62,731 nt of DNA from an uncultured virus (IMG/VR IMGVR_UViG_2519899798_000002). Taxonomy: Duplodnaviria; Heunggongvirae; Uroviricota; Caudoviricetes. Shown here piece after piece: positions 225 to 61,490 of this stretch. The DNA is taken from the IMG/VR virus record IMGVR_UViG_2519899798_000002, positions 62,001-124,731 of that record; one strand, given 5' to 3'. Numbering within the stretch: the stretch's first letter is position 1; each line of letters opens with the position of its first letter. The notes under the pieces are model-generated. The model had not been told where the DNA came from. It ran no database searches and saw nothing but the letters and a program-made list of their open reading frames with translations. The position numbers were made by a program, and so were the translations under genes.

Positions 225-270
225 ACTAAGTTTCAATAAAATCGTACTTTTAACTAGATAGGGGTGCAAC

Positions 271-546
271 ATGCAACTAATCAATGACACAATTATTCTA
301 ACTAAAGAAATGAAAGATATTTTAGGTGATGTGGTGGAATATGCATACATTAAAAAGCCTTCCTGGTCAAGTAAACAAGATTTTGAAGGAGTTTACTCAG
401 AGGTGTTGGGACAAAAGGCAAGAATAGAGCCAGTTGATTCCTACCCGATTTTCGTTAAATTAACAAACGACAAAACATTTACACTGTGGTCATCTGAGTG
501 GGGCGGAATAAGATCTGAAACGGAAAAAGAATACTTAAATGATTAA
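271..546 (+). CDS. hypothetical protein
   Basis: 91-aa ORF with GGGG RBS, bounded by palindromes at 237 and 558. Confidence 0.75.
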   Translation: MQLINDTIILTKEMKDILGDVVEYAYIKKPSWSSKQDFEGVYSEVLGQKARIEPVDSYPIFVKLTNDKTFTLWSSEWGGIRSETEKEYLND

Positions 547-590
547 AGTAATTAAGTTAAAATCATTCTTTTAAAGATAGGAGAGAGGAA

Positions 591-1412
591 ATGTTTTTGG
601 GTCTAACTAAAAATGAGAAAGAGATCCTAAAATACGAGATCATTTCACCTGAAACTAGGTTAAAGTTCACACGGTACATAAGAAGTCAATGTTTAGATGA
701 TGAGAAAAAAGTGAGAATCGTCCATTTAAATAGAATAATAAATATAGCCAATAGTGTAATTGGGAGAAAGAACTATGTTCTAGACCCACAGTATGATGAT
801 GGTCTTCTTGAAATTGAATATGGATGGCATTTTGGTGAGTTGGAGTTGATTCTAAGAATACCAAACACTATTCAATTTATTGAAATAATTATTGATTTGT
901 TGGAACAAGGAATACTGTCTTTAGATGTTGTTTCAAAACTATTCAATGAAAGTTCAGCTTCTTTTTATATTGAAGAAACTGAGGATGGATTTCAACTAAC
1001 TACATTTTCGTTAACAGAAGAAGCACAGTTCAATGATATTGAGGAGCACCCAAATATTAGGTTGTTGATAGACCGAATGAATTTATTGTTTGATAAACAG
1101 GATTATTCTGGAGTGTTACATACTTCAGCGACAATTTTAGAAACATTGGCAAAAGACATTATTGATAGGGACACAATAGGAGATCAAAGTCTTGGTTCTT
1201 TTTTTGATTTATACAGAAAAGAATCAAGATTGCCAAATGAAATTTTAGATTATATCCATGATATTTATAAAAAAAGAAATTTAGAACCCCTAGCTGGTCA
1301 TGGAAGCACCAGTGCTCCTAGTATTAATAAAAAAGAAGCAATAATAATATCAGAAATGACCAAGTCCTTCGTATTAATGGAAAACACAATGGATGCTAAA
1401 TTAGAGTTGTGA
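591..1412 (+). CDS. abortive-infection (Abi_C/HEPN-like) C-terminal domain protein
   Basis: 273 aa; helical C-terminus with TILETLAKDI...RNLEPLAGHG (R-N-x6-H-G), resembling Abi_C/HEPN. Confidence 0.55.
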   Translation: MFLGLTKNEKEILKYEIISPETRLKFTRYIRSQCLDDEKKVRIVHLNRIINIANSVIGRKNYVLDPQYDDGLLEIEYGWHFGELELILRIPNTIQFIEIIIDLLEQGILSLDVVSKLFNESSASFYIEETEDGFQLTTFSLTEEAQFNDIEEHPNIRLLIDRMNLLFDKQDYSGVLHTSATILETLAKDIIDRDTIGDQSLGSFFDLYRKESRLPNEILDYIHDIYKKRNLEPLAGHGSTSAPSINKKEAIIISEMTKSFVLMENTMDAKLEL

Positions 1413-1427
1413 AAAACAAGGAGGCAT

Positions 1428-1691
1428 TTGGAAGTGAATACAAAGGATAATATTGAAGTGTTTTTCGAGTTTAGCGATGGAACTAAAAAAATATTTGACT
1501 ATGATGGATTAATTAAAGGGGAACGAACTGGAATTTATTCATTTAACTATAATATAGTACCCAGTCGTCTACAGCAAGATTTAAAGTCTTTTATTAAACA
1601 TAATGAAACCATAATCTTCGACCTTAATGAAACTAATGTCTATAAAACCAATGACATTGTAAATTATACTGTAAAAACACATTTAAGATAA
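1428..1691 (+). CDS. hypothetical protein
   Basis: 87-aa ORF, AGGAGG RBS, TTG start. Confidence 0.7.
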   Translation: MEVNTKDNIEVFFEFSDGTKKIFDYDGLIKGERTGIYSFNYNIVPSRLQQDLKSFIKHNETIIFDLNETNVYKTNDIVNYTVKTHLR

Positions 1692-1712
1692 AAGAAGTTT
1701 TAGACGAATTTT

Positions 1713-1743
1713 AAAAAAGAGCATTAATCTAAATGCTCTTTTT
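1713..1743. terminator. bidirectional intrinsic terminator
   Basis: AAAAAAGAGCATT-loop-AATGCTCTTTTT between convergent genes. Confidence 0.75.
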
Positions 1744-1908
1744 CATACCGCATCGCCGGCATTCCCGCAAGAATATTCCACTCTTCACAGAGCTTTTGAA
1801 CAAAGTGTAATCACAATTGTCGCAGCGGCCGTATTTTACATCAGGATATTCTTTATAATCATAAACGATTGAAGTATCATACCCGTTTGTTTCATATTTC
1901 TCTTCCAC
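1729..1908 (-). CDS. 59-aa zinc-ribbon protein (not in ORF track)
   Basis: GTG start after AGGTG RBS; MEEKYETNGYD...CDNC...CRRCGMKKSI*. Confidence 0.75.
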   Translation of the reverse strand: MEEKYETNGYDTSIVYDYKEYPDVKYGRCDNCDYTLFKSSVKSGIFLRECRRCGMKKSI

Positions 1909-1978
1909 AAGATCACCTACATAATTTATTCAACATACTCAAGAATACCAAATTTCGTTCGATATAGGGAGGGAACAA

Positions 1979-2230
1979 ATGATTGGATTAGCTTATTTTT
2001 TAATTATCTGGCTTGGAGTTGGATTATTGACTGGCATTAAGTTTATTTTTGTTGATCAGGTCTATAATGAAGAGTTTAAAGAACTCATGGATAAAGAAAC
2101 AGCAGCGGGCATGGAAAGGAATTTGGCCAACCTATTTTTCAAAAATAAGCTTAATGCGCTTGCTTTTTTCATCTTAATTGGTTTACTGCCATTAGCAATG
2201 AGGATTACAAAATTATTTAAAAGAGGTTGA
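1979..2230 (+). CDS. yopE: YopE-like membrane protein
   Basis: 83 aa, two hydrophobic segments, SPbeta synteny. Confidence 0.7.
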   Translation: MIGLAYFLIIWLGVGLLTGIKFIFVDQVYNEEFKELMDKETAAGMERNLANLFFKNKLNALAFFILIGLLPLAMRITKLFKRG

Positions 2231-2233
2231 TTT

Positions 2234-2607: not shown

Positions 2608-2904
2608 ATTAAAAATTTAGTTTTATTGTCCAGCTTTTTAGGGATTGTGCTATCAATTATAGGGCAATTATTTGGAGCCCTAACAGATTTCTTTATTCCA
2701 GGTATTGCAAGGCTTATGGGGGTTTTAGCTGGGCTCCTAGTATTACTTTGCTTGAAGTCAAGAAACACAGAAATGCAGACATTTATAGTGAGTTCAAGTA
2801 CTGCATTAGGAATAATAGGTGCAGGAGTTTTATATCTTCCAGCAGCTATTGTCAATATCTTAATTGGGTTCAAACTAAACAAAAAGATGAGAGAGGAACA
2901 CTAA
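2608..2904 (+). CDS. small membrane protein (start ATT 2608 or TTG 2626)
   Basis: hydrophobic ORF; GGGGTG RBS 7 nt before in-frame ATT. Confidence 0.65.
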   Translation: MKNLVLLSSFLGIVLSIIGQLFGALTDFFIPGIARLMGVLAGLLVLLCLKSRNTEMQTFIVSSSTALGIIGAGVLYLPAAIVNILIGFKLNKKMREEH

Positions 2905-5476: not shown

Positions 5477-5578
5477 AGGTGGAATTAACTTTGTGCAATG
5501 AGGAGCTATTCCTCATTGTATCTAATTAAAATAGGAATTTTAAAGAGAATACAAATACAAAAAATATGTATAAATTAA

Positions 5579-7849: not shown

Positions 7850-8062
7850 ATGTCAGAGCGAATAAAACAGCTAATGGTCAAACGTGGCATCACAGTAGAG
7901 GAATTGTCGAGGGAGACAATGATTGATATGCAGACATTAAACAAAATCATTGAAATGCCAGATGAATCAGATGTTACAACCATAAAGCTTATCGCTCTGG
8001 TGTTGAATGTCTCTATTGATGAGTTATTAGATGAGAAAGGAGGAGAAGAGAATGCAAAATAA
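7850..8062 (+). CDS. yopO: YopO (SroC), Cro/CI-type HTH regulator
   Basis: 70-aa XRE-type HTH (ITVEELSRET...IALVLNVSIDEL). Confidence 0.85.
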   Translation: MSERIKQLMVKRGITVEELSRETMIDMQTLNKIIEMPDESDVTTIKLIALVLNVSIDELLDEKGGEENAK

Positions 8063-9128
8063 AATTAAACAATTAAAAAATTATGCGGTTTACGATGATA
8101 TCGAGGGCTTTTTAATCAATAAAGATATAAGAAGTAGCTCAGGGAATTCTAACTATATGATCCCTTCATCAACTAGAAGGGTGTCGAACACCAGAAAGAA
8201 TTATGAAGGGGATATTAAGCAGTTCTTTAGTGTGATTAAAGGTAAAGATGTCAAAAGTTTAGTTCCCGATGATTTAGTTGTAAGTAAAAGCGAATTAAGC
8301 AACTATGTGAAGTATCTTCAGGAAAAGGGATTAGTTAATAATAGTATTAACAGAAAAATGACCTCCCTGAAGATGCTCTATACATATTTGGAGCATGATT
8401 ATAAGGACTATATTGACTTGTCGGTGTTTAATACTGTCGAAAGGCTTAAAACAGTAACTAAAAACTGGGATAAAACAACCCAGACAGAAGCCGAAAGAAT
8501 CGCTCAGGATATGTATATAAATGAAAGACAGAAACCTTTAATGAAAAAGCTGTTTGTTAAATTCGCCATCAGAACTTCTTTTCGTGTAAGTGCGATTTTG
8601 CGCGTAAGATGGAAAGACATACAGCTTGATGAGAGTACAGGCCATTATATAGTAACAGTTATTGATAAAGGATCTCAGGTTGTGTCTACAGGCATTAACC
8701 AGGTATTTTATGAGGAATTGTTGCAGCTGAAGGAAGAGGATGACAGCGAAACTGAATTGGTTTTTCAGGGGCTTTCGGAACAATCATTACGACACTCCTT
8801 GAAAAGGTCGAAAAAAAGGTTAGGTATACCTCCTGAAAGAGAATTAGTCTTACACTCATTTAAGGGTGTAGGAATTGACTATGTCTATGAGAATTCTGGT
8901 CACGATTTACTTGCAGCAAAAGAACAAGGAAATCATAAAAATACATTAACAACAGAGAGATATATGAGCAGAAAGATTAACATAGCGAACTCTGCTGGTG
9001 TAACAATGGATGAAAAAATCGATTTAAATCCACTATATGAAGCAACTCAAGAGGATTTTATTAGTTTTTTTGAAAACGCTGATCTTGTTACATTAAAAAA
9101 GTTTTTAAAGCATGTAAATGAGCGATAA
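8052..9128 (+). CDS. yopP: YopP (SroD), tyrosine recombinase-family protein
   Basis: 358 aa from MQNKIK; FRVS, DKG, HSFK, GNH, ERY integrase motifs. Confidence 0.9.
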   Translation: MQNKIKQLKNYAVYDDIEGFLINKDIRSSSGNSNYMIPSSTRRVSNTRKNYEGDIKQFFSVIKGKDVKSLVPDDLVVSKSELSNYVKYLQEKGLVNNSINRKMTSLKMLYTYLEHDYKDYIDLSVFNTVERLKTVTKNWDKTTQTEAERIAQDMYINERQKPLMKKLFVKFAIRTSFRVSAILRVRWKDIQLDESTGHYIVTVIDKGSQVVSTGINQVFYEELLQLKEEDDSETELVFQGLSEQSLRHSLKRSKKRLGIPPERELVLHSFKGVGIDYVYENSGHDLLAAKEQGNHKNTLTTERYMSRKINIANSAGVTMDEKIDLNPLYEATQEDFISFFENADLVTLKKFLKHVNER

Positions 9129-10640: not shown

Positions 10641-11618
10641 ATGTTCAATAGTGAGATTAAGGAAAAATATTTAGATACCTTATCTGAGGGTATGGTTATG
10701 CAGATGAGGCCTATTTTTGCAAAAGCAGAGATTACTGAGACTTTATATAATAAAGACATTTATGATTTCACATCAATGCAAATTTTAGAACTTATACGAT
10801 CATTCGACCAAACCACTATTGGTAGTGTTCGAAGAACCTTAGCATTATTGTCATTGTATATTGATTGGGCAATTTCATATAAGTTAAGTAAAGGATTAAC
10901 CAATTTGGCAAGAACTATTTCTGAAGAAGAGCTTTATGAATGTCTCGGAGACAAAAAATTATATATTACTTATAGTGAATTAGAGGAAATGGAAAATCAA
11001 TTAGTTAACTATCAATCAAAGGCTGTATTAAGGCTGTTGTTTGAAGGGGTTTCAGGTTTAGCTCATTCTGAATTGCTAAGTTTAACGAAGAAGCAAGTTG
11101 AGGATGCAATGCTTAACGGTAACGTTTTAACCCTGTATGATTCAAAGCACGGTGAACGAAAACTAAAAGTAAGTAGTGAATGTCTTGTTATTGCCTTAAA
11201 TGCAGCTCAGGAAACTAAATATAAATTAAAGAATGGGAAGGCAAAAGGCCAAACAAAAGAAGTCTTTTTAGTTGAAAATGATTATGTAGTTAAAACAAAA
11301 AGAACGTCCAACAAAGGAGACGGCCAAGCAAGCAAATTTGTCATAACTAATCTAATTACCGATATATCTGAGTTCTTTAAAATTAACTTTTTAACACCAA
11401 ACACTATTGTTAGATCTGGTCATTTATATAGAGCATATCAGCTTTATAAAGAAAAAGGGGTTATTGATAACTCTGTAAGGTATCAGATTATAGATGACTT
11501 TAATTTAAGAGTGAAATCCAAATATCGAGCAGTTTATTCAATGCAAGATTATATTAATGAGGAAGAAGTTAATAAATATTACGCAGAAGAACTAGGTCTA
11601 AAAGAGACGACCATTTAA
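10641..11618 (+). CDS. yopR: YopR (SroF/MrpR), master repressor with integrase fold
   Basis: 325 aa from MFNSEIKEKYL; last gene of sro operon. Confidence 0.9.
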   Translation: MFNSEIKEKYLDTLSEGMVMQMRPIFAKAEITETLYNKDIYDFTSMQILELIRSFDQTTIGSVRRTLALLSLYIDWAISYKLSKGLTNLARTISEEELYECLGDKKLYITYSELEEMENQLVNYQSKAVLRLLFEGVSGLAHSELLSLTKKQVEDAMLNGNVLTLYDSKHGERKLKVSSECLVIALNAAQETKYKLKNGKAKGQTKEVFLVENDYVVKTKRTSNKGDGQASKFVITNLITDISEFFKINFLTPNTIVRSGHLYRAYQLYKEKGVIDNSVRYQIIDDFNLRVKSKYRAVYSMQDYINEEEVNKYYAEELGLKETTI

Positions 11619-13005: not shown

Positions 13006-13088
13006 ATTGTGTAATTTTCACTAAGGTAACAAAATTAAAATTAGTGGATAAAATGTAAGTTTTATAGAGATTTATAAAAGGAGGATGT

Positions 13089-14871: not shown

Positions 14872-14921
14872 TTAAAAGATGCATTTTAAAGTGAATTAGA
14901 TGAAGTAAAGGAGATGAACAG

Positions 14922-16000: not shown

Positions 16001-16033
16001 TAAAAGTAAAATTTCAATGGAAAGAGGAGCTAT

Positions 16034-16336
16034 ATGAGAAGATATCAAACACATGAACAAGTTGCATTAAACTTCTTGCTTTCAGAGGCCAAAGAAGAGC
16101 TTAGATTATGTGAAGAAAGAATCGAGTTTCATGCAAAACATAGAGATTATGTTCTCATGAGGATGGAGAAAGAAATTGAAGCAAAGGCAAATGCGAAAAT
16201 TGAAAAATTATCTTCGTTGCTTGAGATGGAAAGAGAGTCTTGGGCAAACTTACCTTCTCTTTTACAAATTGGAATAGTGAACTCTAGGGGAGAATCTGTA
16301 ATTCAAGAAGAGCATTTTTCTGAGGAAATTGAATAG
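16034..16336 (+). CDS. hypothetical protein
   Basis: 100 aa, GAGGAG RBS. Confidence 0.7.
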   Translation: MRRYQTHEQVALNFLLSEAKEELRLCEERIEFHAKHRDYVLMRMEKEIEAKANAKIEKLSSLLEMERESWANLPSLLQIGIVNSRGESVIQEEHFSEEIE

Positions 16337-16607
16337 AATTGAAGTTTTAAAGAAAAGGAGCTGTTATAAAGTGAAAGATATCCGAGTTATATATGACAGA
16401 AACAAAACTTTAGAAGCGGTCGTTGTCCAGTTTGGAGACTATATGTGTGAGCTAGCAGAATCACAATTAATTGATGAAGAAACTAAAGAATTCGACGTGC
16501 TTAATGATGAATATCAAGGAACTTGGAAATATGAAAATGGAAAACACTGCGAAGTCGAAATTTATGATGGTGTAGACAAGTGGGTTTGTCAAGCATTCTT
16601 ACACTGA
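16329..16607 (+). CDS. hypothetical protein
   Basis: 92 aa, overlaps upstream stop. Confidence 0.7.
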   Translation: MNRIEVLKKRSCYKVKDIRVIYDRNKTLEAVVVQFGDYMCELAESQLIDEETKEFDVLNDEYQGTWKYENGKHCEVEIYDGVDKWVCQAFLH

Positions 16608-16643
16608 ATAAAAAGACTGTTTTAAAGAGAAAGGAGCTGAACT

Positions 16644-18398: not shown

Positions 18399-18534
18399 AT
18401 AAAAGGATTATTTTATCTAGAGAGGACTGGACAAAATAATCAATAATAATACTCTATCGTAAGTTCATATTTTATATTACTTCGAAGAAAAACATTGAAT
18501 TTAAAAAGGGAGCTAGAAGCCCCCAATTGCGATC

Positions 18535-20021: not shown

Positions 20022-20107
20022 ATAAAAGATAGTTTTTAACTAAACATATAAGGTTGGATCGTTATCGGTAAAAGCACACGCATCGATAACGATCGCAGAA
20101 GGGGTTG

Positions 20108-21357: not shown

Positions 21358-21409
21358 TCAAATTTGGATCAAAATAAAATATTTATTTTAATGGAAGGAG
21401 GGAACCAAA

Positions 21410-24442: not shown

Positions 24443-24501
24443 AAATAAAATTAAACATTCAATAAAAACGATATTTTAACCAGAATCCAGGAGGTAATGA
24501 A

Positions 24502-24897
24502 ATGAACTTATATGAAATTATGCTAGAACACTTTGCACCCAAGGGAAGTGAGCGGGGTATCTGTACATACGTGCTTGCTCAATCTGATGAAGAGGTATAT
24601 GAATGGTTGAAAACTGATCCAAGCCTATCTGACGGCAGGGTAGTCTATACCCCATATCAAGACAACGAAGAAGACGGTAAAACATATGCAATTTATAATC
24701 AGAGCTTTGATATTGTTGGTCATGAAAAATATAAAGATCGAATGATTCGATTAAAAGGTGAGTTGAATGATGAAGTTGAACTAACCGATCTTTATTACGG
24801 AATGACCTTAGTCGGGTGGCGTATGGTGAAATCGGATATTTCAACGGAACAAATTGAATTGTTAAAAGATACTGGCATCAGTATGGAGTTTGCATAA
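24502..24897 (+). CDS. yoqY: YoqY-like protein
   Basis: 131 aa, upstream of yoqZ. Confidence 0.6.
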   Translation: MNLYEIMLEHFAPKGSERGICTYVLAQSDEEVYEWLKTDPSLSDGRVVYTPYQDNEEDGKTYAIYNQSFDIVGHEKYKDRMIRLKGELNDEVELTDLYYGMTLVGWRMVKSDISTEQIELLKDTGISMEFA

Positions 24898-24994
24898 AAG
24901 TAATTTTTTATTCGGATAAGGGGGTGGTACTAATGTGATTGCTTAAAAGATGAGAAAAAGAATAAAAATAAAATTATATAAGGAGAGTTGTTAA

Positions 24995-28404: not shown

Positions 28405-28663
28405 TTATTATAAATCCATGATATAATTCTCTTTAATCCTAAGGGAGAGAATTAAAATGGTAATGGTTTTGGGGGTTAAAAGGTGATTAATATTATTGGA
28501 GGATGAGCTAATATGGAAGTAAGAGTCGGAGGTTGATCATCTCTAGGAGCTGCCATTGTGTGGCTCTTTGACACTTATACTTAATAAAATGATAATTTTA
28601 TTCGAATTAGAAAGATTGAAAATGAAACACAAAAATAAAAAATATAAATGTTTATAAAACATG

Positions 28664-29098: not shown

Positions 29099-29130
29099 AC
29101 AAAAATAAAAATAGAGGATGATAATTGCAT

Positions 29131-32341: not shown

Positions 32342-32351
32342 GGAGTAAGCA

Positions 32352-33863: not shown

Positions 33864-33877
33864 GAAGGTGGCGATTA

Positions 33878-34942
33878 ATGTCCGATCTACAAACCATTAG
33901 GGAAAGAATTTATAAGGAAGAAAAAATACAAGATGTTTTAGAAGCTCTTGGATGTTGGGGCATCAGCACCGAACAAGGAGGTAAGTTGTTTGTTGCTGGA
34001 CTTCCTGACGGTGATAATGAACGAAGTGTTCAAGTCAAAAACACACCCTCTTTAACTTCAAATATCAGAAGCAAGGGAATATCAGGATCAATATTTGATG
34101 TCATATCCTACATACTTTATGAAGCTAAATCTGAAGATGATAAAAAAGCATGCCTTTCAAAGAGCAAATTTTGGTTATGCAATAAACTAAATTATTTAGA
34201 GTACATAGATGGATTTTATAAATTAACAAAAGAAAAAGAAAAACCACAACCGAATAGATGGCTGCACAAGCTTCAGAAAAATCGTAATAAGGAAGATGGA
34301 ATAACCGATGAGAACGAAATATTGCCCGAAAGTGTTTTGGATCAGTACGGAAATATTCCGTATTTAGGATGGTATAATGAAGGATTGTCACTTAGGACAC
34401 AAAAGCTTTTTGGTGTAGGAATTGATGTAAGATCTGAACGCGTAACTTTTCCGGTACATAATAAGAGTGGTCAATTAATTGGTGTTAAAGGGCGATATAT
34501 TGGAAATGACCCAGTGGTTAATGATAAATATAAGTATCTCTATATACAGCCCTGTAATAAGTCAATTGAATTTTATAATTTACATAGAGCTCTCCCTCAC
34601 ATTAAGAGACTGAAAGAAGCAATAGTGGTCGAAGGTGGCAAAACCACCTGGTATTTAACTCAATGGGGGTTTAAAAACTGTATTTCAATTGAAGGAGACA
34701 GTATGTCTGATGAGCAAATAAGGATACTTAAAAATTTAGGGATTGGGATTAAATTTGTATTTGCATATGACAAAGACAAAGATGCCAAATTCATTGTTAA
34801 TGAGGTATCCAGGCTTACAGGCAGATTACGTTACGGAATTTATGACAAGGACAACCTTTTATCTGATAAAGATTCGCCTACAGATAAAGGATACGATGTT
34901 TGGACTTCCTTATACGAAAACAAATTTAAAATAAATAGATAG
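33878..34942 (+). CDS. DNA primase, TOPRIM domain (YorJ position)
   Basis: RVTFPV, GVKGR, VVEG, YDKD. Confidence 0.85.
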   Translation: MSDLQTIRERIYKEEKIQDVLEALGCWGISTEQGGKLFVAGLPDGDNERSVQVKNTPSLTSNIRSKGISGSIFDVISYILYEAKSEDDKKACLSKSKFWLCNKLNYLEYIDGFYKLTKEKEKPQPNRWLHKLQKNRNKEDGITDENEILPESVLDQYGNIPYLGWYNEGLSLRTQKLFGVGIDVRSERVTFPVHNKSGQLIGVKGRYIGNDPVVNDKYKYLYIQPCNKSIEFYNLHRALPHIKRLKEAIVVEGGKTTWYLTQWGFKNCISIEGDSMSDEQIRILKNLGIGIKFVFAYDKDKDAKFIVNEVSRLTGRLRYGIYDKDNLLSDKDSPTDKGYDVWTSLYENKFKINR

Positions 34943-34947
34943 GATGG

Positions 34948-36642: not shown

Positions 36643-36659
36643 CGGGATGAGGTGATGCC

Positions 36660-38951
36660 GTGATTATAAAACCAAAGTTAGAAACGGATATAACAAAACT
36701 ATACGAAAAACATTGGGTAAATGACTTTGATGAGATAAATACACTATTTCATAAAGATGAGCCGAAACTCTGTGTTCTTGACTCAGAGACTACAGGTTTA
36801 CATATCATTAAAGACAAACCGTTTATGTGGGTTTTTGGCTGGATGCTCCCAAAAGAAAAAAGAACAGATGAAATTAAAGGAAGGGTATTTGCTTTTGATT
36901 CTAAAGCCGAAATTCTTTTACAAGTAATTGCCCTAACAAAAAAATGTGTAATGACTGTTGGTCACAATGTAAAATACGATTTGCACATGTTAATAAACGG
37001 CGGTATTTCTGAAAAAGTTGTTTACGGGTTGAAAAATATTACAGATACAATGGGCCTTTGTAGGTTTTCCTTTGATGCTGTATCTGCACGAGACGGTGGA
37101 GATGTTTTAGGGCTTAAAAAAGTATCAGAAAAGTATATTGATCCAAAGGCAGGCGAGTTTGAGAAAGAGGTAAAGAAAGAACTACGAAAAATAAATGATG
37201 CTAAGCGAAATATATTAAAAGAATTATTAAAGCCCTATAAAGGATGGGGACTTGGAAAAATTAAAGAAGCGTACAAGGTAAAAAAGCGAAACGAAATGGA
37301 CTACTTTACAAAAGAGAAAAAGCAACGGTGGCTGAAGGTGCCTGAAGAAATTGAAAATGTGTATTTTAAATGGATGGAAGAAAATCCTTTTGCAGATTAC
37401 TCTGAAGTAGACCGAGATATAATGATGGAATATGTCCATAGTGATGGTATCTATACATTAGAGTTAGTTGAATTTACTTACCCTACAGTATTAAAAAGAA
37501 AACAAAAAGCCATTCTTGAACAAGAAAATAAACTGATAATCGAATTATTAAAAATGGAACGTGTTGGTATGAAAGTAGATATGCCTTATTTGCACAGCTG
37601 CTTTAAAAAATGTGAGGACGAAATTCAAAAACTGTATGAAGAACTATGGGGAATTGTTGGAGAATATTTCACCGTTTCTCAAGGGACAGTAATTGCTGAT
37701 TACTTTGAGAAAAAGCTTGGAGAGAGACCAGAAACAACTGATAAATCTTTTCTTAAAAAACACAAAGATGATCGTGTATCCCAATTAATTACAAGACTTA
37801 GACGACTTGAAAAGTGGCAATCGACTTATATCTCAAGGATTATTGAAGTGGCGCAATATGATAATCATTTTTATACTCAGTATGGGCAGTTTAACACTGT
37901 GTCTGGAAGGCTGGGATCAGATGCGCAGCAATTCCCTAAAGAAAGAATTCTAACAGAGGAAGGAGAGCTCTACGAGAAAGAAAATGGAGAAGGTAAGGCA
38001 CCGATTGAATATGAAATTTTCTCTCCGAGGCGAGCATTTATAGTTGAAGGAGGAAATTACAACAAAATTGCATACTTTGATTTATCACAAATAGAGTTAA
38101 GAGCACAGGCAAACTATACAGTTCTGTTGAAGAAGCCTGATTTAAACCTATGCCGAGCATATATGCCTTTTAAATGTACTCATTACATAACTGGTGAAGA
38201 GTTTCGTTTTGATACGAAAGAAGAAAGAGCAAGGTGGTATGAAAAGAAAGAAGACGGAACTTCAGTTTGGCTTCTTGAAAACGGAGAGAGCTGGACTCCC
38301 ACTGATGTCCATAGCGAAACATCACATAATACATTAATGGCATTGGCATTTAAATGTGTAGACAAGTATAAGCAATACGAACATGAAAAAGAATCTCCAG
38401 TTGATGAAAAATCTTTTAAAAAGTTCTGGAGATACATAGGAAAGATGTTTAACTTCATGCGAAACTATGGAGGCGGTGCTAAAAAAGCATCGGAAGCACT
38501 TGAAGTCTCAATGGAAATTGCTAATGCCCTTGTCTCAGGTTGGTCAAATACCTTTCCAGAGGTATCTTATTATCAGAAACAAGTTGCAGCTAAAGTACAA
38601 AAGAATAGCTATGCAACAAATATGTATGGGAGAGTTTATTTCCTTTCAAATACTGATAAAGCATACAAAGTAGGGAACTATCTTGTTCAAGGCTCATGCG
38701 CAGATATGTTAAAAGGATATGTTATTAGGATTGGGGAATTTTTAAGAGAAAACAATTGTAAAACTCTTCCCTTAGCTAATATTCATGATGAATTACAGTT
38801 TTTAGTGTACAAGGGTGAGGAATGGATTTTTCCTCATATTAAACGAATTATGGAAGACGTTGAGTGGATGCAAGTGCCTGTAGTAGTGGATTTAGAGATT
38901 ACAGAAACTACATGGGCTGATAAAAAAGAAGTCCAAATTAAAGCAGCGTAA
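36660..38951 (+). CDS. family-A DNA polymerase with 3'-5' exonuclease
   Basis: DSETTG, GHNVKYD, SGRL, DLSQIELR, RYIGKMFNFMRNYGG, IHDEL. Confidence 0.92.
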   Translation: MIIKPKLETDITKLYEKHWVNDFDEINTLFHKDEPKLCVLDSETTGLHIIKDKPFMWVFGWMLPKEKRTDEIKGRVFAFDSKAEILLQVIALTKKCVMTVGHNVKYDLHMLINGGISEKVVYGLKNITDTMGLCRFSFDAVSARDGGDVLGLKKVSEKYIDPKAGEFEKEVKKELRKINDAKRNILKELLKPYKGWGLGKIKEAYKVKKRNEMDYFTKEKKQRWLKVPEEIENVYFKWMEENPFADYSEVDRDIMMEYVHSDGIYTLELVEFTYPTVLKRKQKAILEQENKLIIELLKMERVGMKVDMPYLHSCFKKCEDEIQKLYEELWGIVGEYFTVSQGTVIADYFEKKLGERPETTDKSFLKKHKDDRVSQLITRLRRLEKWQSTYISRIIEVAQYDNHFYTQYGQFNTVSGRLGSDAQQFPKERILTEEGELYEKENGEGKAPIEYEIFSPRRAFIVEGGNYNKIAYFDLSQIELRAQANYTVLLKKPDLNLCRAYMPFKCTHYITGEEFRFDTKEERARWYEKKEDGTSVWLLENGESWTPTDVHSETSHNTLMALAFKCVDKYKQYEHEKESPVDEKSFKKFWRYIGKMFNFMRNYGGGAKKASEALEVSMEIANALVSGWSNTFPEVSYYQKQVAAKVQKNSYATNMYGRVYFLSNTDKAYKVGNYLVQGSCADMLKGYVIRIGEFLRENNCKTLPLANIHDELQFLVYKGEEWIFPHIKRIMEDVEWMQVPVVVDLEITETTWADKKEVQIKAA

Positions 38952-38970: not shown

Positions 38971-39693
38971 ATGAAAATTTTCAAAAAACTTATATACAAA
39001 CACAAAAAATATGTATATCATAGAATTAATGAGATGACACTTTTTGCTACAATTGGGTTGTTAGGAGTAGGACTCGTATATAGCGCTAAAAACTTGTATA
39101 CACATCAAGACAATCAAGTCTCAATAAAAGAGTCATTTTATCTAAATAAAAAAGAGGTGAGGCAAAAACTTATTCATGAAATTGACGTTCCAAGAATCCT
39201 TCCCAAGCTAAAGAGTGAGGAAGAAAAACAGGCTGAAAGTAGAAAAAAGTATCTTAATGCGAAGATTACATATCTAACAGAAGAAAATAAAAAAGCAGCA
39301 AAACATACAAAGACAAAAAAAGTGCAAAAAACCAATACAAAGAGAAATGTTGATAAAGCAGTTTCAAAAAGTACAATTGCAAAGGCAGTGAAGAGTCATG
39401 AAGTTGTTGCCACTGCTTACACAGCGTTTTGTTCTACAGGGTGCACAGGGAAAACAAGAACCGGCTATGATGTATCAAACACATCCTATTACAATGGAAA
39501 AAGAATAATTGCTGTTGATCCAGAAGTAATTCCTTTGTATTCATTAGTTAAAGTTTCATATGAAGGGAATAGCTTTCAAGCATATGCAATAGATACAGGA
39601 GGAGATATTAAAAACAATCGTATTGATATTCTGATGGACAGTGAGCAAGAAGCATGTGCATTTGGTCGTAAAAATGTAAGAGTGAGCTGGTAA
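38971..39693 (+). CDS. yorM: YorM-like 3D-domain cell-wall protein (start possibly 39034)
   Basis: ATAY, IAVDP..IP, AIDTGG.IK.NRIDI; N-terminal TM. Confidence 0.85.
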   Translation: MKIFKKLIYKHKKYVYHRINEMTLFATIGLLGVGLVYSAKNLYTHQDNQVSIKESFYLNKKEVRQKLIHEIDVPRILPKLKSEEEKQAESRKKYLNAKITYLTEENKKAAKHTKTKKVQKTNTKRNVDKAVSKSTIAKAVKSHEVVATAYTAFCSTGCTGKTRTGYDVSNTSYYNGKRIIAVDPEVIPLYSLVKVSYEGNSFQAYAIDTGGDIKNNRIDILMDSEQEACAFGRKNVRVSW

Positions 39694-41471: not shown

Positions 41472-41605
41472 AAGAATTACCTCCCAGGTTTTGATTGTGA
41501 TACAACTCTAGTCTAGCATGTTAAATATTTGAAATGTGTGAAGTGTTTGTGAAACTGATTAAAATTTGTCTTGTATACAAACTTAAAATTAGAGGAGTAG
41601 ATAGA

Positions 41606-43903: not shown

Positions 43904-44116
43904 ATGAATCATATATGTGACATCTGTAAAGAGTACATTAACGGAAAAACAATTTGTCTTAGAATCAGCGATGATAAAACTTATGTAGACTTCAATTGTT
44001 GTGAAGGTTGTGCAAAGGGTTATTCCGAGAAAGTGAAGAAGGAATGCAGCAACTTAAGCGTTAAAAAGACATTAGAGTATTTAAGGCTAAACAACAAATA
44101 CAAAATAAGTGGATAA
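43904..44116 (+). CDS. yorZ: YorZ-like zinc-binding protein
   Basis: CDIC...CCEGC, 70 aa. Confidence 0.7.
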   Translation: MNHICDICKEYINGKTICLRISDDKTYVDFNCCEGCAKGYSEKVKKECSNLSVKKTLEYLRLNNKYKISG

Positions 44117-44226
44117 AATATTCCTTTTATCGAGAATTGTTTCTAAAAGTGAAAACGCCATAAAAACTTCTTATGGCGTCTGTCGAACAGGGAGGTGAGC
44201 CAAAAGGCTTTGGATTTACTCTGAGA

Positions 44227-45983: not shown

Positions 45984-46020
45984 ATAAAATTCAATTTTTA
46001 TCGTGAAAGGAGCAACTGAA

Positions 46021-46898: not shown

Positions 46899-46943
46899 AG
46901 ATCTAAATAAAAGTTTTATTTTAAACAAAAGAGGAGGAAATAA

Positions 46944-47981: not shown

Positions 47982-48376
47982 TGATCATTACATATGAGAG
48001 TAAAACAGGCAATGTAAAAAGGTTTGTAAAAGCGCTGCAACACAAATCAGATATTAAGGCAATTGAAATAACAGATGATACCATCATCAATCAAGAGTTC
48101 ATACATATTACATACACGATTGGCTTTGGGGAAGTGCCTGAAAGGACATTGAATTTTATTAATAAGAATAAAAATAAAATAAGAGGAGTTGCTGTTAGTG
48201 GAAACAAGGTTTGGGGTGATAACTATGGTTTAGCTGGAGACAAGCTCTCAGCTAAGTTCCACACACCATTGTTATTAAAGTTTGAACTTAGTGGAACGAA
48301 ACAAGACTTACAGAAGCTCATTCAGGAGGTACAACTTATTGACAAACACAATACCAAAGTGGATCAAGCTCAATAA
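47981..48376 (+). CDS. nrdI: class Ib RNR flavodoxin NrdI (YosM)
   Basis: YESKTGNVKRF, TYTIGFG, SGNKVWG, KFELSGT. Confidence 0.95.
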   Translation: MIITYESKTGNVKRFVKALQHKSDIKAIEITDDTIINQEFIHITYTIGFGEVPERTLNFINKNKNKIRGVAVSGNKVWGDNYGLAGDKLSAKFHTPLLLKFELSGTKQDLQKLIQEVQLIDKHNTKVDQAQ

Positions 48377-50438
48377 TGAGATCATGATTCAGAAAGATGG
48401 GAAGTATCAATTCGAAAAGGATAAGGAGGCCGTACATAGCTACTTTGTTGATTATATAAATCAAAACACAGTCTTTTTCCATGATTTAAAAGAGAAGCTG
48501 GATTATCTGATTAAAAATGATTATTACGAAGAAGAATTCTTAGATCAATACACATTTGAACAGATTAAATCAATTTATAAGATTGCTTACAGTTACAAAT
48601 TTAGATTCCCATCTTTTATGAGCGCGTTTAAGTTCTACAATGACTACGCATTGAAGACAAACGATAAAACAAAGATCCTGGAAAGGTATGAGGATCGTGT
48701 CTCAATTGTGGCTTTATATTGCGCTGATGGTGATTATGAGAAAGCTGTTGAGGAAGTACATACTATGATGAAACAAGAGTATCAGCCGGCAACACCTACT
48801 TTCCTTAATGCTGGACGTAAGCGAAGAGGTGAAATGGTGAGCTGCTTCTTACTTGAAGTAGGCGACAGTTTGAATGATATTTCACGTGCTATTGATATCT
48901 CCATGCAGCTTTCTAAGCTAGGTGGAGGAGTAGCATTAAATCTAAACAAACTAAGAGCCAAAGGTGAAGCGATTAAAGACGTAGAGAATGCGACTAAAGG
49001 TGTCGTAGGTGTTATGAAGCTATTGGATAATGCTTTTAGATATGCAGATCAAATGGGACAAAGACAAGGATCAGGAGCAGTTTATCTAAGTGTATTCCAT
49101 CCAGACATTACAGATTTCCTAGATACCAAAAAAATAAGTGCTGATGAAGATGTCCGAGTTAAAACATTATCTATTGGTGTAGTTGTTCCAGATAAATTTA
49201 TTGAACTTGCAAGGGAAGACAAGGATTATTACATGTTCTATCCTCATTCAGTATACAAGGAATATGGGCAGTATCTTGATGAGATGGATATTAATGAAAT
49301 GTATGATGAGCTTGTTGAAAACCCTAGGGTTAGAAAAGCTAAAGGGAATACTCGAAAGCTGTTAGAGCAATTGGCCATTCTAAGAAGCGAATCAGGCTAT
49401 CCGTATATTATGTTCGCTGACAATGTAAATAAAGTGCATCCAAATGAACATATTTCAAAAGTGAAGTTTTCAAATTTGTGTTCTGAAGTCCTCCAATCAT
49501 CACAAGTATCAGTTTATACGGATTACAATAAAGAGGATGAAATTGGCTTAGATATCTCCTGCAATCTTGGCTCAATGAACATTGTAAATGTAATGAGTAA
49601 TCAATCAATTGCTTCAACAGTAAGAATAGCAATTGACTCATTGACAACTGTCACAAGGAAAACAAACATTGTAAATGCTCCAGCTGTTGCAAGAGCAAAT
49701 ACATTAATGAGATCGATTGGCTTAGGACAGATGAACCTACATGGATTTCTAGCTCAAAATAATATTGCTTATGAAAGTGAAGAAGCTAAAGATTTTGTTA
49801 ATACATACTTTATGATGATTAACTTCTACTCACTGCAGCGTTCTATGGAAATTGCACGAGAAACAGGGGAGACATACTACAAGTTTGATGGTTCAACTTA
49901 TAAATCAGGTGAGTATTTCGAAAAGTACGTAACAAATGATTATAGCCCTCAGTTTGAAAAGGTTAAAAAGCTATTTGGAGATCAACATATTCCTAACATT
50001 GAAGATTGGACGAAACTTAAAGAAGATGTAATGAAATATGGCTTATACCATTCGTATAGGCAGGCTATTGCACCTACGGGAAGCATCTCATATGTTCAAT
50101 CATCTACAGCAGGTGTAATGCCAATTATGGAGAGAATTGAGGAACGTACATACGGAAACAGTAAGACATATTATCCGATGCCAGGTTTATCGGCTCAGAA
50201 TTGGTTCTTCTACAAAGAAGCATACGACATGGATATGTTTAAGGTAGTTGATCTTATTGCAACAATTCAGCAGCACGTTGACCAAGGAATTTCATTTACA
50301 TTGTTTTTAAAGGATACGATGACAACAAGAGATTTGAACCGAATTGATCTCTATGCTCATCATCGAGGAATTAAGACTTTGTACTATGCGAGAACAAAAG
50401 ATACAGGACAGGAAGGGTGTCTGTCTTGTTTAGTTTAA
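48339..50438 (+). CDS. nrdE: class Ib ribonucleotide reductase alpha subunit, no intron or intein
   Basis: TTG start after GGAGG; ATPTFLNAG, SCFL, SNLCSE, APTGSIS, TLYY, CLSC. Confidence 0.96.
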   Translation: MTNTIPKWIKLNNEIMIQKDGKYQFEKDKEAVHSYFVDYINQNTVFFHDLKEKLDYLIKNDYYEEEFLDQYTFEQIKSIYKIAYSYKFRFPSFMSAFKFYNDYALKTNDKTKILERYEDRVSIVALYCADGDYEKAVEEVHTMMKQEYQPATPTFLNAGRKRRGEMVSCFLLEVGDSLNDISRAIDISMQLSKLGGGVALNLNKLRAKGEAIKDVENATKGVVGVMKLLDNAFRYADQMGQRQGSGAVYLSVFHPDITDFLDTKKISADEDVRVKTLSIGVVVPDKFIELAREDKDYYMFYPHSVYKEYGQYLDEMDINEMYDELVENPRVRKAKGNTRKLLEQLAILRSESGYPYIMFADNVNKVHPNEHISKVKFSNLCSEVLQSSQVSVYTDYNKEDEIGLDISCNLGSMNIVNVMSNQSIASTVRIAIDSLTTVTRKTNIVNAPAVARANTLMRSIGLGQMNLHGFLAQNNIAYESEEAKDFVNTYFMMINFYSLQRSMEIARETGETYYKFDGSTYKSGEYFEKYVTNDYSPQFEKVKKLFGDQHIPNIEDWTKLKEDVMKYGLYHSYRQAIAPTGSISYVQSSTAGVMPIMERIEERTYGNSKTYYPMPGLSAQNWFFYKEAYDMDMFKVVDLIATIQQHVDQGISFTLFLKDTMTTRDLNRIDLYAHHRGIKTLYYARTKDTGQEGCLSCLV

Positions 50439-52048: not shown

Positions 52049-52287
52049 GATTGATTAAATTAGAGCAGCCTAATTGCAATCCATGTAAAATGGTTTCCAA
52101 TTACTTAGAACAAGCAGATATTCATTTTGAGACAGTGGACGTTACACAGGAACCAGAAGTAGCAGCAAGATTTGGTGTCATGGGAGTACCGGCAACCATT
52201 TTGCTGAATGATCAAGGAGAAGAAGTAAAACGAAGTGTTGGTTTTAAGCCTAATGAACTTGATGAGTTACTAAAGGAATTACGATAA
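52045..52287 (+). CDS. yosR: thioredoxin/NrdH-like protein YosR
   Basis: CNPC motif. Confidence 0.9.
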
Positions 52288-52337
52288 AAGGGTAATTTTA
52301 AACAAACTTAAATTAAAAGGAGCTATATTACATAACA

Positions 52338-53474: not shown

Positions 53475-53586
53475 AAATACACCACAATTTCCTTTTTAAC
53501 TCATTTTAACATAAATAGGGAAAAGGAGAGATCTGATTTCAATAAAAGAATACTTTTATCTAAAATCAATAAGGAGGAAAGAGATC

Positions 53587-56301: not shown

Positions 56302-56596
56302 AAATAAAGCCTCCTATATATAGTGTAAGGTAAGGATAGAATAAAATTACAGAAAAGTCAAAATAATTTATATTTTAAACGGGTTATTAAAACATCTTTA
56401 TGAACAGAGGGATTTGTCAGGGCTAAGTAAATGGATTTAAGAATGAAAATAAAATAACTATAGACAAATACAAATAATATGTATAATATAATAATAGAAG
56501 ATGATGAAATGACAGTTTTTTTATCTAATATACAAAAACAAAAAATATACATTTTTTAAAACTAATATTTTATTCAAACTTTAAGGAGGTGATTCA

Positions 56597-59743: not shown

Positions 59744-59793
59744 ATTTAATTAAAATTCTAATTTTATGCAGAATTAAAACAGGAGTGGACTAA

Positions 59794-59925
59794 ATGGACA
59801 ATAGAGAACAAATTGACTGGACTTGTAAAGAATGCAGTTTTAGTTGGATAGGGGATTACACAGATTTTTCATGTCCTGCATGTGATGAGATTGATATAAG
59901 ACCCAAAAATAAGTTATTGAATTGA
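59794..59925 (+). CDS. 43-aa zinc-ribbon protein (not in ORF track)
   Basis: MDNREQIDWTCKEC...CPACDEIDIRPKNKLLN*; bounded by palindromes at 59751 and 59927. Confidence 0.7.
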   Translation: MDNREQIDWTCKECSFSWIGDYTDFSCPACDEIDIRPKNKLLN

Positions 59926-59957
59926 ATAAAATGTTGATTTCATTTAGAAAGGAGATA

Positions 59958-60203
59958 GTGACAACGGACGTTTTAGAAAGAGCAATTAAACGTGAGAGAC
60001 AAACCAAGTATAGACTCCTAAGAAAATTTAGAAAAGCTAGAGATATGGCTAGCAAACATAGTAAAAGAGGCTACACATGCAATTTCCTTAGGAGGCAAAT
60101 TAGATATCATGATCAGTACAGTTGGATTCAGAAATACTCTAAAAACGAACTTGCAATAAGAATATTTCAATGGTCAGAACGAGAGAGAAACATGTTCAGA
60201 TAA
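59958..60203 (+). CDS. basic hypothetical protein
   Basis: AAGGAG RBS, GTG start. Confidence 0.6.
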   Translation: MTTDVLERAIKRERQTKYRLLRKFRKARDMASKHSKRGYTCNFLRRQIRYHDQYSWIQKYSKNELAIRIFQWSERERNMFR

Positions 60204-60222
60204 ATTAAGAAGGGAGAGTCTT

Positions 60223-60642
60223 ATGGAGAATACAATGCCCTGGTTTGATTTAGACTTTGAGTTTAAACCAGACAATAACATTGATGAAGCTCTTGTGCGA
60301 TTATTTGATCTCATGAAGAAGAGTCTCCACATTTATTTCAATATTAAAAACTCTTCTGATATTCATGAGTTTTTAAAAATCGTAGCAGTAAAAAACAATG
60401 TTGATTATTCCTTTATTGAATGGATTAAGGGAAAAGGTATCCCAAGATTAAAGAAAATTGATTTCGAAAGTTTGCCAAGCAATGATCAATTTCTTGCAAT
60501 GATTGAGTTCGATGAATACTGTCTTAAATGTGAGATGGATTTTAAAGAACCAGAAGAGGTAAGGAGCTGTATCATCACGATTATTAATAGTATTCAAGAA
60601 TATATTAATATCTGCAACCAGTTAATCAAAGGAGAGATTTAA
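60223..60642 (+). CDS. hypothetical protein
   Basis: 139 aa. Confidence 0.75.
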   Translation: MENTMPWFDLDFEFKPDNNIDEALVRLFDLMKKSLHIYFNIKNSSDIHEFLKIVAVKNNVDYSFIEWIKGKGIPRLKKIDFESLPSNDQFLAMIEFDEYCLKCEMDFKEPEEVRSCIITIINSIQEYINICNQLIKGEI

Positions 60643-61104
60643 TGGTGAAAACAGAATTCAATGTTAATGATGTGTTAGAAAATTATAAACGAAGAGATGA
60701 GGAACGTAGGGAATTCATCATTCACGAAGGCTACACTGCTATCGAAGAAATCATTAAAGAAGTGAACCAAAGAGGATCTCTAAATGAAGCAGATATTTAT
60801 TACGGAACACCTAAGCCGCAGCTAAGTTTCTCGGACGTTGAATTAGGTTACATGCTTACTTCAGGACGAAATTGTTCAAATTTTTGAAGTGTATGGACAA
60901 GGTACTGATAGCTGGTTTTTGAAACCAAGTGACGATACCATTTATAAACTGTATAACACAGCTTACGGAGTGTATTTAAACCAGTTCGATGATTTCATTA
61001 ATTACACAATAAATAAAGAGAATGAGAGTAAAAAGGTTTCTTCTAGTCCCACGATCTTAAATGACATTACCGGCAGATATACAGTTGGAAGAGGTTCTAA
61101 GTAG
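60642..61104 (+). pseudogene. probably one gene split by deletion or frameshift
   Basis: second ORF has no RBS; its frame reads QDEIVQIFEVYGQG upstream of the called start. Confidence 0.5.
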
Positions 61105-61274
61105 TGATCGTTACAGCTTGGATATTGTTCGTCGCATTTGGGCTTGTGTTGTTAGCAAACATGGATTCCCAAGGGGATATTAAATTTGCAGTATATATTG
61201 GTGTATTGAAATTTGTTTCAGTATTGATTGTTGCTATTACAGCAGGAGTAATTTGGGGAGGATTATTTCAATGA
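61104..61274 (+). CDS. 56-aa two-TM protein (not in ORF track)
   Basis: MIVTAWILFVAFGLVLL...AGVIWGGLFQ*. Confidence 0.65.
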   Translation: MIVTAWILFVAFGLVLLANMDSQGDIKFAVYIGVLKFVSVLIVAITAGVIWGGLFQ

Positions 61275-61435
61275 TAAAAAGGATTATGAGTTTTAAGTAT
61301 GACGACTGGAGACATATTTTCTTCTTATTAAAGAATGTAGCGAAGAATTTCTTTAAAGGTGATTTTCATGAAGCAAGCGATGCGCTTTATTGGATACGGG
61401 TACACTTGTCTTTTGACTCAAATAAAGTGAAGTGA
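61271..61435 (+). CDS. hypothetical protein
   Basis: GGAGG RBS; ATGA overlap. Confidence 0.6.
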   Translation: MIKRIMSFKYDDWRHIFFLLKNVAKNFFKGDFHEASDALYWIRVHLSFDSNKVK

Positions 61436-61490
61436 ACATTAGATAAAATCGGTCTTTTATTTACAATAAAAATAAAATTAGTGGAGGAGA

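Follow-up and report, generated by a model that had tools for sequence, protein, structure and literature searches.

Perfect inverted repeats of the form TAAAA-N6-TTTTA, hereafter called dyads, recur between the genes of an uncultured virus (IMG/VR record IMGVR_UViG_2519899798_000002), of which a stretch of 62,731 nucleotides, the window, was analysed. The window is the right half (positions 62001–124731) of a 124,731-bp phage genome of the SPbeta family. The repeat was found to be the core of a strict, ancient, and symmetric 28-bp element that marks gene borders, has private spacers in a set order, and coincides with breaks in the homology of related phages. About 30–55 copies per genome are located between genes in SPbeta-like phages and in large Firmicute phages that are more distant. 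The element has a defined anatomy and distribution, its spacers are conserved and collinear, and breakpoints concentrate at its copies. Our interpretation, with a probability of roughly 0.55, is that related phages exchange modules at the 28-bp dyads, each of which would be a fixed joint with a label of its own, and that gene order is preserved in this exchange.

Among temperate phages SPbeta is a model, and accessory genes for defence, counter-defence, toxins, and sporulation-related functions are found in its relatives. How large phages can stay syntenic yet freely exchange accessory genes is an open question in phage evolution. The closest DNA matches of the phage studied here, Goe13, Goe12, and SPBc2, share 95–97% identity over a coverage of only 54–72%, and the phage is therefore a mosaic relative.

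Abundance, anatomy, and distribution of the dyad

The window contains 23 perfect copies of TAAAA-N6-TTTTA, given a mean of 1.17 copies (standard deviation 1.01, maximum 4) in 100 dinucleotide-preserving shuffles, none of which (0/100) reached 23. A preceding sequence-only reading of the same DNA, which had listed 19 perfect copies and estimated about one chance copy per window, had proposed a regular-expression count against shuffled controls as a check. The count revealed an enrichment, and all 19 coordinates were confirmed as exact matches. The list was incomplete, as four further perfect copies were found at 2610, 11378, 13049, and 39125; those at 11378 and 39125 lie in regions (5.6–13 kb and 28.7–41.5 kb) that had been described as free of the motif. 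Similarly, eight copies with one or two mismatches had been reported, whereas 29 with one and 171 with two arm mismatches were counted, of which 7 and 25, respectively, are intergenic. Six of the seven intergenic one-mismatch copies carry the spacers of perfect copies in relatives and are thus regarded as decayed members of the class.

The arms and the 6-bp spacer length are fixed, as had been stated from the sequence. In the whole 124.7-kb phage, 32 copies were found at N6 and 0–4 at every other spacing from N0 to N14, so that the excess is confined to N6. Arm swaps at this spacing, again counted in the whole phage, gave one copy for GAAAA/TTTTC, none for CAAAA/TTTTG, and three for AAAAA/TTTTT; altering the outer T/A pair thus abolished the excess. 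In an unbiased scan of all 1,024 5-mer arms at 13 spacings (0–12; 13,312 dyads), no dyad of the window was more over-represented than TAAAA-N6-TTTTA (23 observed, 1.28 expected, P=3e-21). Second came ATAAA-N8-TTTAT, which reads this site one base wider.

According to a crude gene model based on open reading frames (ORFs; 89.4% coding, 10.6% non-coding), 29 of the 32 genome copies lie within the 10.6% of non-coding DNA. In the window, this applies to 20 of the 23 copies. A typical copy is located −3 to 12 nt past a stop codon and 17–37 nt ahead of the next start, and the TAA of the motif itself is the stop codon in three window copies.

For a sequence logo, 27 intergenic copies were oriented by gene direction. 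The extended consensus TYTnnA-TAAAA-N6-TTTTA-WnnARA is a two-fold symmetric site of 28 bp. Among the outer-arm positions, A at +22 is present in 27/27 copies, T at −4 in 21/27, and A at −1 in 22/27. The resulting 11+6+11 layout, two 11-bp arms about a 6-bp spacer, has the geometry of a Xer/dif core site (two inverted arms of about 11 bp and a centre of 6–8 bp), here with N6 only. The resemblance to a tyrosine-recombinase core site noted from the sequence was thereby borne out.

Hairpin covariation between the outer arms was absent (−5/+21 pairs: C.A 8, C.G 5, T.G 6, T.A 4), the mean RNA folding energy of the 28-mer is only −1.5 kcal/mol, and the spacer lacks self-complementarity. The conservation of the arms singly, not as pairs, and the weak folding argue for a symmetric protein site on duplex DNA rather than a hairpin. 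An RNA hairpin or cruciform was ruled out by the lack of covariation and the negligible folding, and on the same grounds an mRNA-processing signal, one of the alternatives offered earlier, is disfavoured. A generic promoter or terminator was dismissed as well: promoter-like matches occur at or below the level of shuffles (54 vs 58.7±6.7 and 59 vs 81.1±10.3) and few overlap dyads, and no plus-strand terminator-like site adjoins a dyad. The host ComK and CodY boxes, which are A/T dyad sites with a different spacing, were set aside.

The dyad is shared by the relatives. SPBc2 holds 34 copies, compared to 2 for the reversed control, and all nine SPbeta relatives contain 30–43 copies at N6 and 0–5 at other spacings. 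The extended half-site occurs 14–32 times per strand in the relatives (control, 0–1). Cultured phages outside Spbetavirus are enriched too: FADO has 33 copies vs 1 in the control, Tsamsa 23 vs 3, and Geobacillus phage E3 30 vs 7. The margin is smaller in a Staphylococcus 'SPbeta-like' phage (17 vs 8 in the reversed control), where TAAAA-N6-TTTTA nevertheless ranks first among the dyads (P=1e-8). A strict 28-mer probe detected 64 loci in uncultivated viral contigs; several of them contain 4–11 copies in 20 kb although megablast shows no similarity to the cultured set. Ten whole uncultivated records carry 12–55 copies (control, 1–5), the richest of them, G001, having 55 vs 3. In five of the ten, the excess was again found at N6 alone, and 39/55, 15/22, 9/15, 17/22, and 15/19 of their copies are intergenic. 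The distant dyad-bearing phages span 54–170 kb. Lactococcus phage 949 showed no excess of TAAAA-N6-TTTTA; its top dyad, ATTAT-N3-ATAAT (10 observed, 1.24 expected), has another geometry.

Private spacers and breaks in homology

The 350 copies in ten genomes (this phage and nine relatives; the genomes are related and the counts are not independent events) use 73 spacers, 12 of which occur in all ten. The 32 spacers listed for this genome are all different. The order of the spacers is collinear in 9/9 relatives, and the genomes differ in which of the labelled sites are present.

The sequences on either side of the spacers were grouped into flank classes, a crude assignment set by a score threshold of 0.5. 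By this measure, 30 of the 53 shared spacers border at least two flank classes on the left as well as at least two on the right, with up to 5–6 classes, and all four left/right combinations were found at five sites. Most flank classes are tied to one spacer (63/76 left, 63/73 right), the majority of exceptions being single-base variants. Where the distal flanks differ, identity falls to background (0.3–0.45) just beyond ±6–7 nt, so that the conserved island is the 28-bp element itself. For the dyad of the 44114 type (TATTCC), SPbeta and phi3T share the core, the right flank is unrelated, and the left flank largely unlike.

Same-address replacements were many among the ten genomes, and none of the modules was observed at a second address. 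Two exact dyad-to-dyad indels were found (SPBc2 87599/88400 vs phi3T and SPbetaL6; SPbetaL2 109208/109649 vs SPbetaL6), one of which retains the right spacer and the other the left. In contigs from public sequencing, the joints beside dyads at 14900, 15995, and 24958 are mosaic differences of a relative; no joint from dyad to dyad appeared in these contigs, which were hardly a test of excision.

Breakpoints were defined as the ends of BLAST high-scoring segment pairs between the whole phage and the nine relatives; 775 ends were merged into 283 unique ones, fuzzy by about 10 bp. Of these, 34 are located within 10 bp of a copy, with 2.6 expected if uniform. A breakpoint was found in 25/29 junctions with the motif and in 67/182 without it (p=8e-7), or in 55/102 if motif-less junctions of at least 20 bp are considered (p=0.002). 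Also within the motif junctions the breakpoints are concentrated: 23/56 lie within 5 bp of the core, compared to 11.2±3.0 at random, and 2 of 5000 simulations reached 23.

The view that the copies split the accessory genome into cassettes is supported by these data, as breakpoints against the nine relatives cluster at the copies and the same spacer borders different flanking genes. In the suggested comparison with SPbeta-family genomes, breakpoints indeed piled up at the core, but such a comparison cannot place crossovers inside an identical core. An integron-like addition, loss, or reordering of genes between copies is not supported: the strict collinearity of the spacers in 9/9 relatives contradicts reordering, and laboratory hybrids, described below, crossed over in long homologous tracts.

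Candidate reader and competing explanations

Proteins shared by dyad-bearing phages were searched by tblastn of 212 predicted proteins against four near-complete, distant dyad-rich genomes. Ten of the 212 matched in all four, including a YopP-like and an MrpR-like protein at separate loci, both of which have the tyrosine-recombinase fold. In addition to the four distant genomes (4/4), a YopP homologue was found in a 54-kb fragment. Residues R185, K213, H275, H302, and Y311 of YopP are invariant in seven homologues at 21–34% identity; the Arg-II position is R or K across the family, which thus keeps R-K-H-(R/K)-H-Y. These positions align with those of XerD, and YopP conforms to the active-site pattern of the Xer family (R-K-H-R-H/W-Y). 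The best matches of the YopP-family profile were XerA/XerC-like proteins (2.5e-14) and XerD (1.4e-13), followed by XerH. IntI4 was matched at 4.5e-11, with a best stretch covering only positions 234–300. The conserved Xer-like YopP (SroD) is consequently our best guess for a reader of the dyads, as predicted from these comparisons. SroD is reported to be an auxiliary repressor. Integration of SPbeta is attributed to the serine recombinase SprA in the available part of a published account (PMC8612738), which leaves YopP without an assigned role in recombination.

YopQ (SroE) was detectable in only two of the four distant dyad-rich genomes, which weakens its case as a universal reader. A 399-aa protein at genome positions 48137–49336 on the minus strand was considered as a third recombinase and dropped because of its metallophosphoesterase motifs (DWHFG, GNHG, GHIHH). 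This protein, encoded to the left of the window, is among the only ten proteins common to all four distant dyad-rich genomes, and a dyad lies 110 nt away.

A reader of tyrosine-recombinase fold is already described for another repeated element of these phages. SPBRE, a 15-bp motif present at about ten SPbeta promoters, is the binding site of the repressor MrpR (YopR, SroF); the available text reports 10 peaks in chromatin affinity purification sequencing (ChAP-seq), all assigned to SPBRE promoters, and MrpR as a proven non-catalytic repressor despite its related fold (PMC10516654). The SroF box of phi3T is, according to the accessible part of a preprint, a 26-bp asymmetric A-tract bound by a monomer, and SroE a second repressor with an unknown mode of action (bioRxiv 10.1101/2025.11.27.690993). 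When the A-tract box upstream of aimR was searched in SPBc2, it was found at aimR, yopM, yopV, yorE, yorM, yorZ, yosX, and in the yonP/T/X region, which are exactly the published ChAP-seq targets; no perfect dyad is near the yopM and yopV targets. The possibility that the dyad is SPBRE was rejected on account of its different sequence and its 34 copies in SPBc2, compared to about 10 targets. As the A-tract box and not the dyad matches the published targets, the dyad is a second, more abundant element. Both are intergenic repeats of the same phages with a tyrosine-recombinase-fold reader, proven for SPBRE and putative for the dyad, but SPBRE is an asymmetric A-tract box (15–26 bp), monomer-bound at about 10 promoters, and the dyad is symmetric and 28 bp long. 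In the SPBc2 record, stem-loops and two other palindromes are annotated and the dyad class is not. The SPBc2 box holds a small dyad of its own, ATACA-N7-TGTAT (6 observed, 0.4 expected).

In the mechanism we propose for labelled joints, a dimeric phage protein, with YopP (SroD) as the best candidate, would read the arms, and exchange would take place between allelic copies bearing the same spacer. Exchange could be catalysed by that enzyme, or the conserved 16–28 bp could act as a seed for recombination of the general or single-strand-annealing type. As the core is identical on both sides, sequence alone cannot separate enzyme-catalysed from homology-seeded exchange. A family-wide border element would provide mosaicism with a physical substrate in phages ranging from Bacillus to Geobacillus and Staphylococcus, and labelled joints would suggest a job for the conserved Xer-like YopP. 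If exchange is catalysed, it would add a new type of site-specific recombination to those known in nature and offer a ready toolkit of orthogonal sites. A tractable laboratory system is available in which the idea can be put to a direct test.

Several observations weigh against this interpretation. Motif-less junctions break too (55/102), so the dyad is not required for mosaicism. The YopP of this phage has K where Arg-II normally stands. The YopP of phi3T is only 33% identical to it and the dyads in phi3T are the same; YopP thus varies with the immunity module, and the site does not. Lactococcus phage 949 has a YopP homologue and no dyad enrichment. As evidence for labels, the constraint on the spacers seems to be a trend rather than proof: at orthologous sites grouped by flanks, spacer differences amount to 0.014 per site, compared to 0.028–0.041 nearby, and variable spacers were found in 6/64 clusters, compared to 8–14/64 in control windows.

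A recombinase action at the dyads is not borne out by four deposited, lab-evolved hybrids of phi3T(s) and SPbeta (Hyb1-3, PP526179). Their large parental switches all fall within tracts of 1.4–18 kb over which the two parents do not differ, the other switches, of 3–68 nt, hold no palindrome, and no joint confined to a dyad was found in the four hybrids. The suggestion that the dyads are recombination sites agrees with their core-site geometry and with an Xer-like recombinase with conserved catalytic residues; the hybrids, which switched in long identical tracts, are uninformative about the dyads. The identical parental tracts themselves begin or end at dyads. In Hyb2, the dyads at 104632, 106012, and 119045 are only a few bases away from ends of the tracts 104630–106015 and 114170–119046. 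The available part of the original report assigns 15 of 16 recombination sites to homologous regions and describes one as 'nonhomologous' after yosA (bioRxiv 10.1101/2020.05.06.055103). The dyad next to yosA (SPbeta 116415–116430, spacer TATTCC) is common to SPbeta and phi3Ts; its right flank is unrelated and its left flank largely unlike, and the 'nonhomologous' site may coincide with it.

A purely regulatory function of the dyads, as operator or roadblock sites with mosaic joints as a passive by-product, is conceivable but rather unlikely; repressor (SroD/SroE) sites had also been offered as an alternative in the sequence-only reading. SroD/YopP, the ParB/DndB-like SroE/YopQ, or another factor would silence or time transcription between genes, and the conserved island at the gene border would be the only shared sequence where recombination of diverged phages can start. 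Such a function would suit the copies located immediately upstream of ribosome-binding sites at borders in early and late regions, the vicinity of the dyad to many SPBRE promoters, and the laboratory crossovers by ordinary homology; a dimeric binder is suggested by the symmetry of the site and its lack of hairpin covariation. The precedents of MrpR, a repressor of related fold (PMC10516654), and of SroE, reported as second repressor (bioRxiv 10.1101/2025.11.27.690993), are in line with it as far as the available texts describe them. However, YopP retains every catalytic residue over 21–34% identity, which a pure repressor would not need, YopQ is present in only two of the four distant dyad-rich genomes, and the dyad is enriched outside the arbitrium/Sro group (FADO, Tsamsa, E3). 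Furthermore, the 10 MrpR peaks described in the accessible text are all SPBRE promoters and do not approach the approximately 34 dyads (PMC10516654), and private spacers that stay identical under replacement of both flanks are left unexplained.

An addressed cassette exchange, in which a single phage Xer-like recombinase, YopP/SroD, would pair the allelic dif-like sites of co-resident or co-infecting relatives, is unlikely. The private 6-bp overlap at each of 30–55 sites would restrict strand exchange to like with like, so that any gene block could be swapped between phages and gene order would never be broken. Heterospecific lox and FRT sites, which have identical arms and differing spacers, recombine only like with like in recombinase-mediated cassette exchange, and order is kept. 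Addressed exchange, if true, would be the natural counterpart of this engineered use; the action of a recombinase on the dyads is a proposal.

It is improbable that the dyads form an integron-like system, as the sequence-only reading had suggested, in which single-gene cassettes would be actively cut out, inserted, and rearranged by a phage tyrosine recombinase at any pair of dyads in a genome. Core-site geometry, an encoded Xer-like recombinase, two exact dyad-to-dyad cassette indels, and the varying set of labelled sites among genomes are compatible with such a system, but the spacer order is never permuted in 9/9 relatives and all 32 listed spacers of this genome differ. Differing spacers block most tyrosine recombinases. 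Integron attC sites are imperfect inverted repeats of 57–141 bp that fold as single strands, whereas the site described here comprises 16–28 bp, folds at −1.5 kcal/mol, and lacks arm covariation; no attC-like folded sites were found, and attI and Pc were not searched for. In integrons, cassette order varies by excision and re-insertion, in contrast to the collinear order in the relatives. The YopP profile, finally, is closest to Xer proteins, and its match to IntI4 covers only part of the length. A role at the RNA level, either as a short hairpin or as a sequence signal that affects how the mRNA is processed, how stable it is, or how the downstream gene is translated, is extremely unlikely: copies do lie within polycistronic units 17–37 nt ahead of start codons and the arms could pair as a 5-bp A-U stem, but the 28-mer hardly folds, both outer arms are conserved without covariation, and the symmetric consensus is the same for copies between minus-strand genes.

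With labelled joints as the preferred interpretation, the dyads can be compared to known repeats. The stoperators of mycobacteriophages L5 and Bxb1 are likewise said to be dozens of repressor-type sites in short intergenic spaces of a temperate phage, but reportedly they are asymmetric, 13 bp long, in one orientation to transcription, and without a variable spacer or label. The 28-bp 11+6+11 geometry is that of dif. Adaptive modules on Acinetobacter plasmids are bounded by short recombinase-type pdif sites ('dif modules'; Mindlin et al. 2019, PMC6449649). In the available part of that work, many such sites flank gene modules in accessory regions, with an Xer-family enzyme at hand, similar to the dyads; the latter differ in residing in phage genomes and in their arm sequence, their 30–55 copies, and their private spacers in fixed order. 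The candidate recombinase of the dyads is also single and phage-encoded instead of host XerC plus XerD, and no module was seen to have moved between addresses. The PeSLs (promoter-early stem-loops) of T4-type phages comprise sigma70 promoters and terminator hairpins and recombine by mutual homology, as stated in the text available (Arbiol et al. 2010, PMC2839356). They resemble the dyads as short repeats between small, non-essential phage genes, with shuffling, insertions, deletions, and replacements between relatives; the dyads differ in that they are not promoters, terminators, or hairpins and combine common arms with private spacers. No published description of the dyad was found in literature searches on motif strings and SPbeta mosaicism, and the available text of two SPbeta-family comparative papers, searched for 'palindrom' and related words, contained no passage on such an element.

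Copies in the window and neighbouring features

The perfect and decayed copies of the window and the gene of the candidate reader are given below in window coordinates. Dyads carry no strand, and the occurrence of a spacer refers to the ten genomes.

237..252: junction dyad TCGTAC; intergenic, 12 nt after stop, 18 nt before start; spacer found 7 times; breakpoints 236 and 252
558..573: junction dyad TCATTC; spacer found 5 times, 4 right-flank classes; breakpoint 573
2610..2625: dyad ATTTAG, ambiguous gene context; within a minus-strand ORF (crude model), plus-strand ORF starts at 2626; spacer found 4 times
5527..5542: junction dyad TAGGAA, upstream of aimR; SPBRE-like box nearby at 5557; 6 left and 1 right flank class
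11378..11393: core match in the mrpR/yopR coding sequence; outer arms off consensus, identical flanks in each of 7 instances; unlikely to be functional
13049..13064: junction dyad TGTAAG; spacer found 8 times
14873..14888: junction dyad GATGCA; 10/10 genomes; 5 left and 5 right flank classes; breakpoints 14873–14894
16609..16624: junction dyad AGACTG; 10/10 genomes; 4 left and 6 right classes; part of the precise cassette indel, SPbeta vs phi3T/SPbetaL6
18400..18415: junction dyad GGATTA; spacer common to SPbetaL6 only, flanks differ
20023..20038: junction dyad GATAGT; spacer found 9 times; all four left/right combinations found
21375..21390: junction dyad TATTTA; spacer found 6 times
24463..24478: junction dyad ACGATA; spacer found 5 times
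24895..24910: junction dyad GTAATT; the upstream gene ends with its TAA as stop codon
28585..28600: junction dyad TGATAA; coincides in part with the −10 of a strong promoter-like site; SPBRE-like boxes near
39125..39140: dyad GAGTCA; 150 nt into the longest yorM-like ORF, 123 nt past an SPBRE-like box; found 6 times with the same flanks
44114..44129: junction dyad TATTCC; its TAA is a stop codon; 10/10 genomes; four-gamete positive
45985..46000: junction dyad TTCAAT; 10/10 genomes; 3x3 flank classes
46908..46923: junction dyad GTTTTA; 10/10 genomes; 4 left and 6 right flank classes
52285..52300: junction dyad GGGTAA; its TAA is a stop codon; 10/10 genomes
53543..53558: junction dyad GAATAC between divergent genes; breakpoint 53541 in 7 relatives
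56557..56572: junction dyad CTAATA upstream of a yosX-like gene; directly 3' of an SPBRE-like box (56538); 10/10 genomes
59751..59766: junction dyad TTCTAA; 10/10 genomes; four-gamete positive
61444..61459: junction dyad TCGGTC; 10/10 genomes; 5x5 flank classes; four-gamete positive
16001..16016: decayed copy GTAAAA with one mismatch in the arms; spacer as in the perfect SPBc2 copy at 86886
16334..16349: decayed copy TTGAAG with one mismatch in the arms; spacer as in the perfect SPBc2 copy at 87599
41560..41575: decayed copy TTTGTC with one mismatch in the arms; spacer as in the perfect SPBc2 copy at 115044
8031..9128, plus strand: yopP/sroD-like gene for an Xer-type tyrosine recombinase (PF00589, PF02899); putative reader of the dyads

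The strongest promoter-like site of the window (TTGACA-17-GATAAT, 11/12; 28568–28596) is located upstream of a yorE-like gene, and its −10 hexamer sits within the spacer of the 28585 dyad. A protein on this dyad would block the promoter-like site. Next to the same left flank, the spacer is TGATAA in this and four other phages and TTATCA in phi3T (89340), SPbetaL3, and BUCT083. The latter is the exact reverse complement of the former, which could reflect either a flipped spacer or merely two point changes.

SPBRE-like A-tract boxes were found in the window at 5557, 28635/28673, 39002, and 56470/56538, with weaker matches at 7251, 12774, and 43853. Most of these boxes are within about 20–270 bp of a junction dyad.

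The window encodes aimR, a YopO-like helix-turn-helix protein, the YopP-like protein of the integrase family, a DndB/ParB-like YopQ, and MrpR/YopR. The yopO-like gene (7850–8062) overlaps the longest yopP-like ORF (8031–9128) by 32 nt; yopP starts at 8052 in the ORF-based gene model and at 8031 in the longest ORF. The replication module (29125–38951) is of the Goe11/12/14 type. Its helicase is 100% identical to that of Goe11/12/14 and less than 60% identical to that of every other matched phage; among the helicase matches listed, none was to SPBc2.

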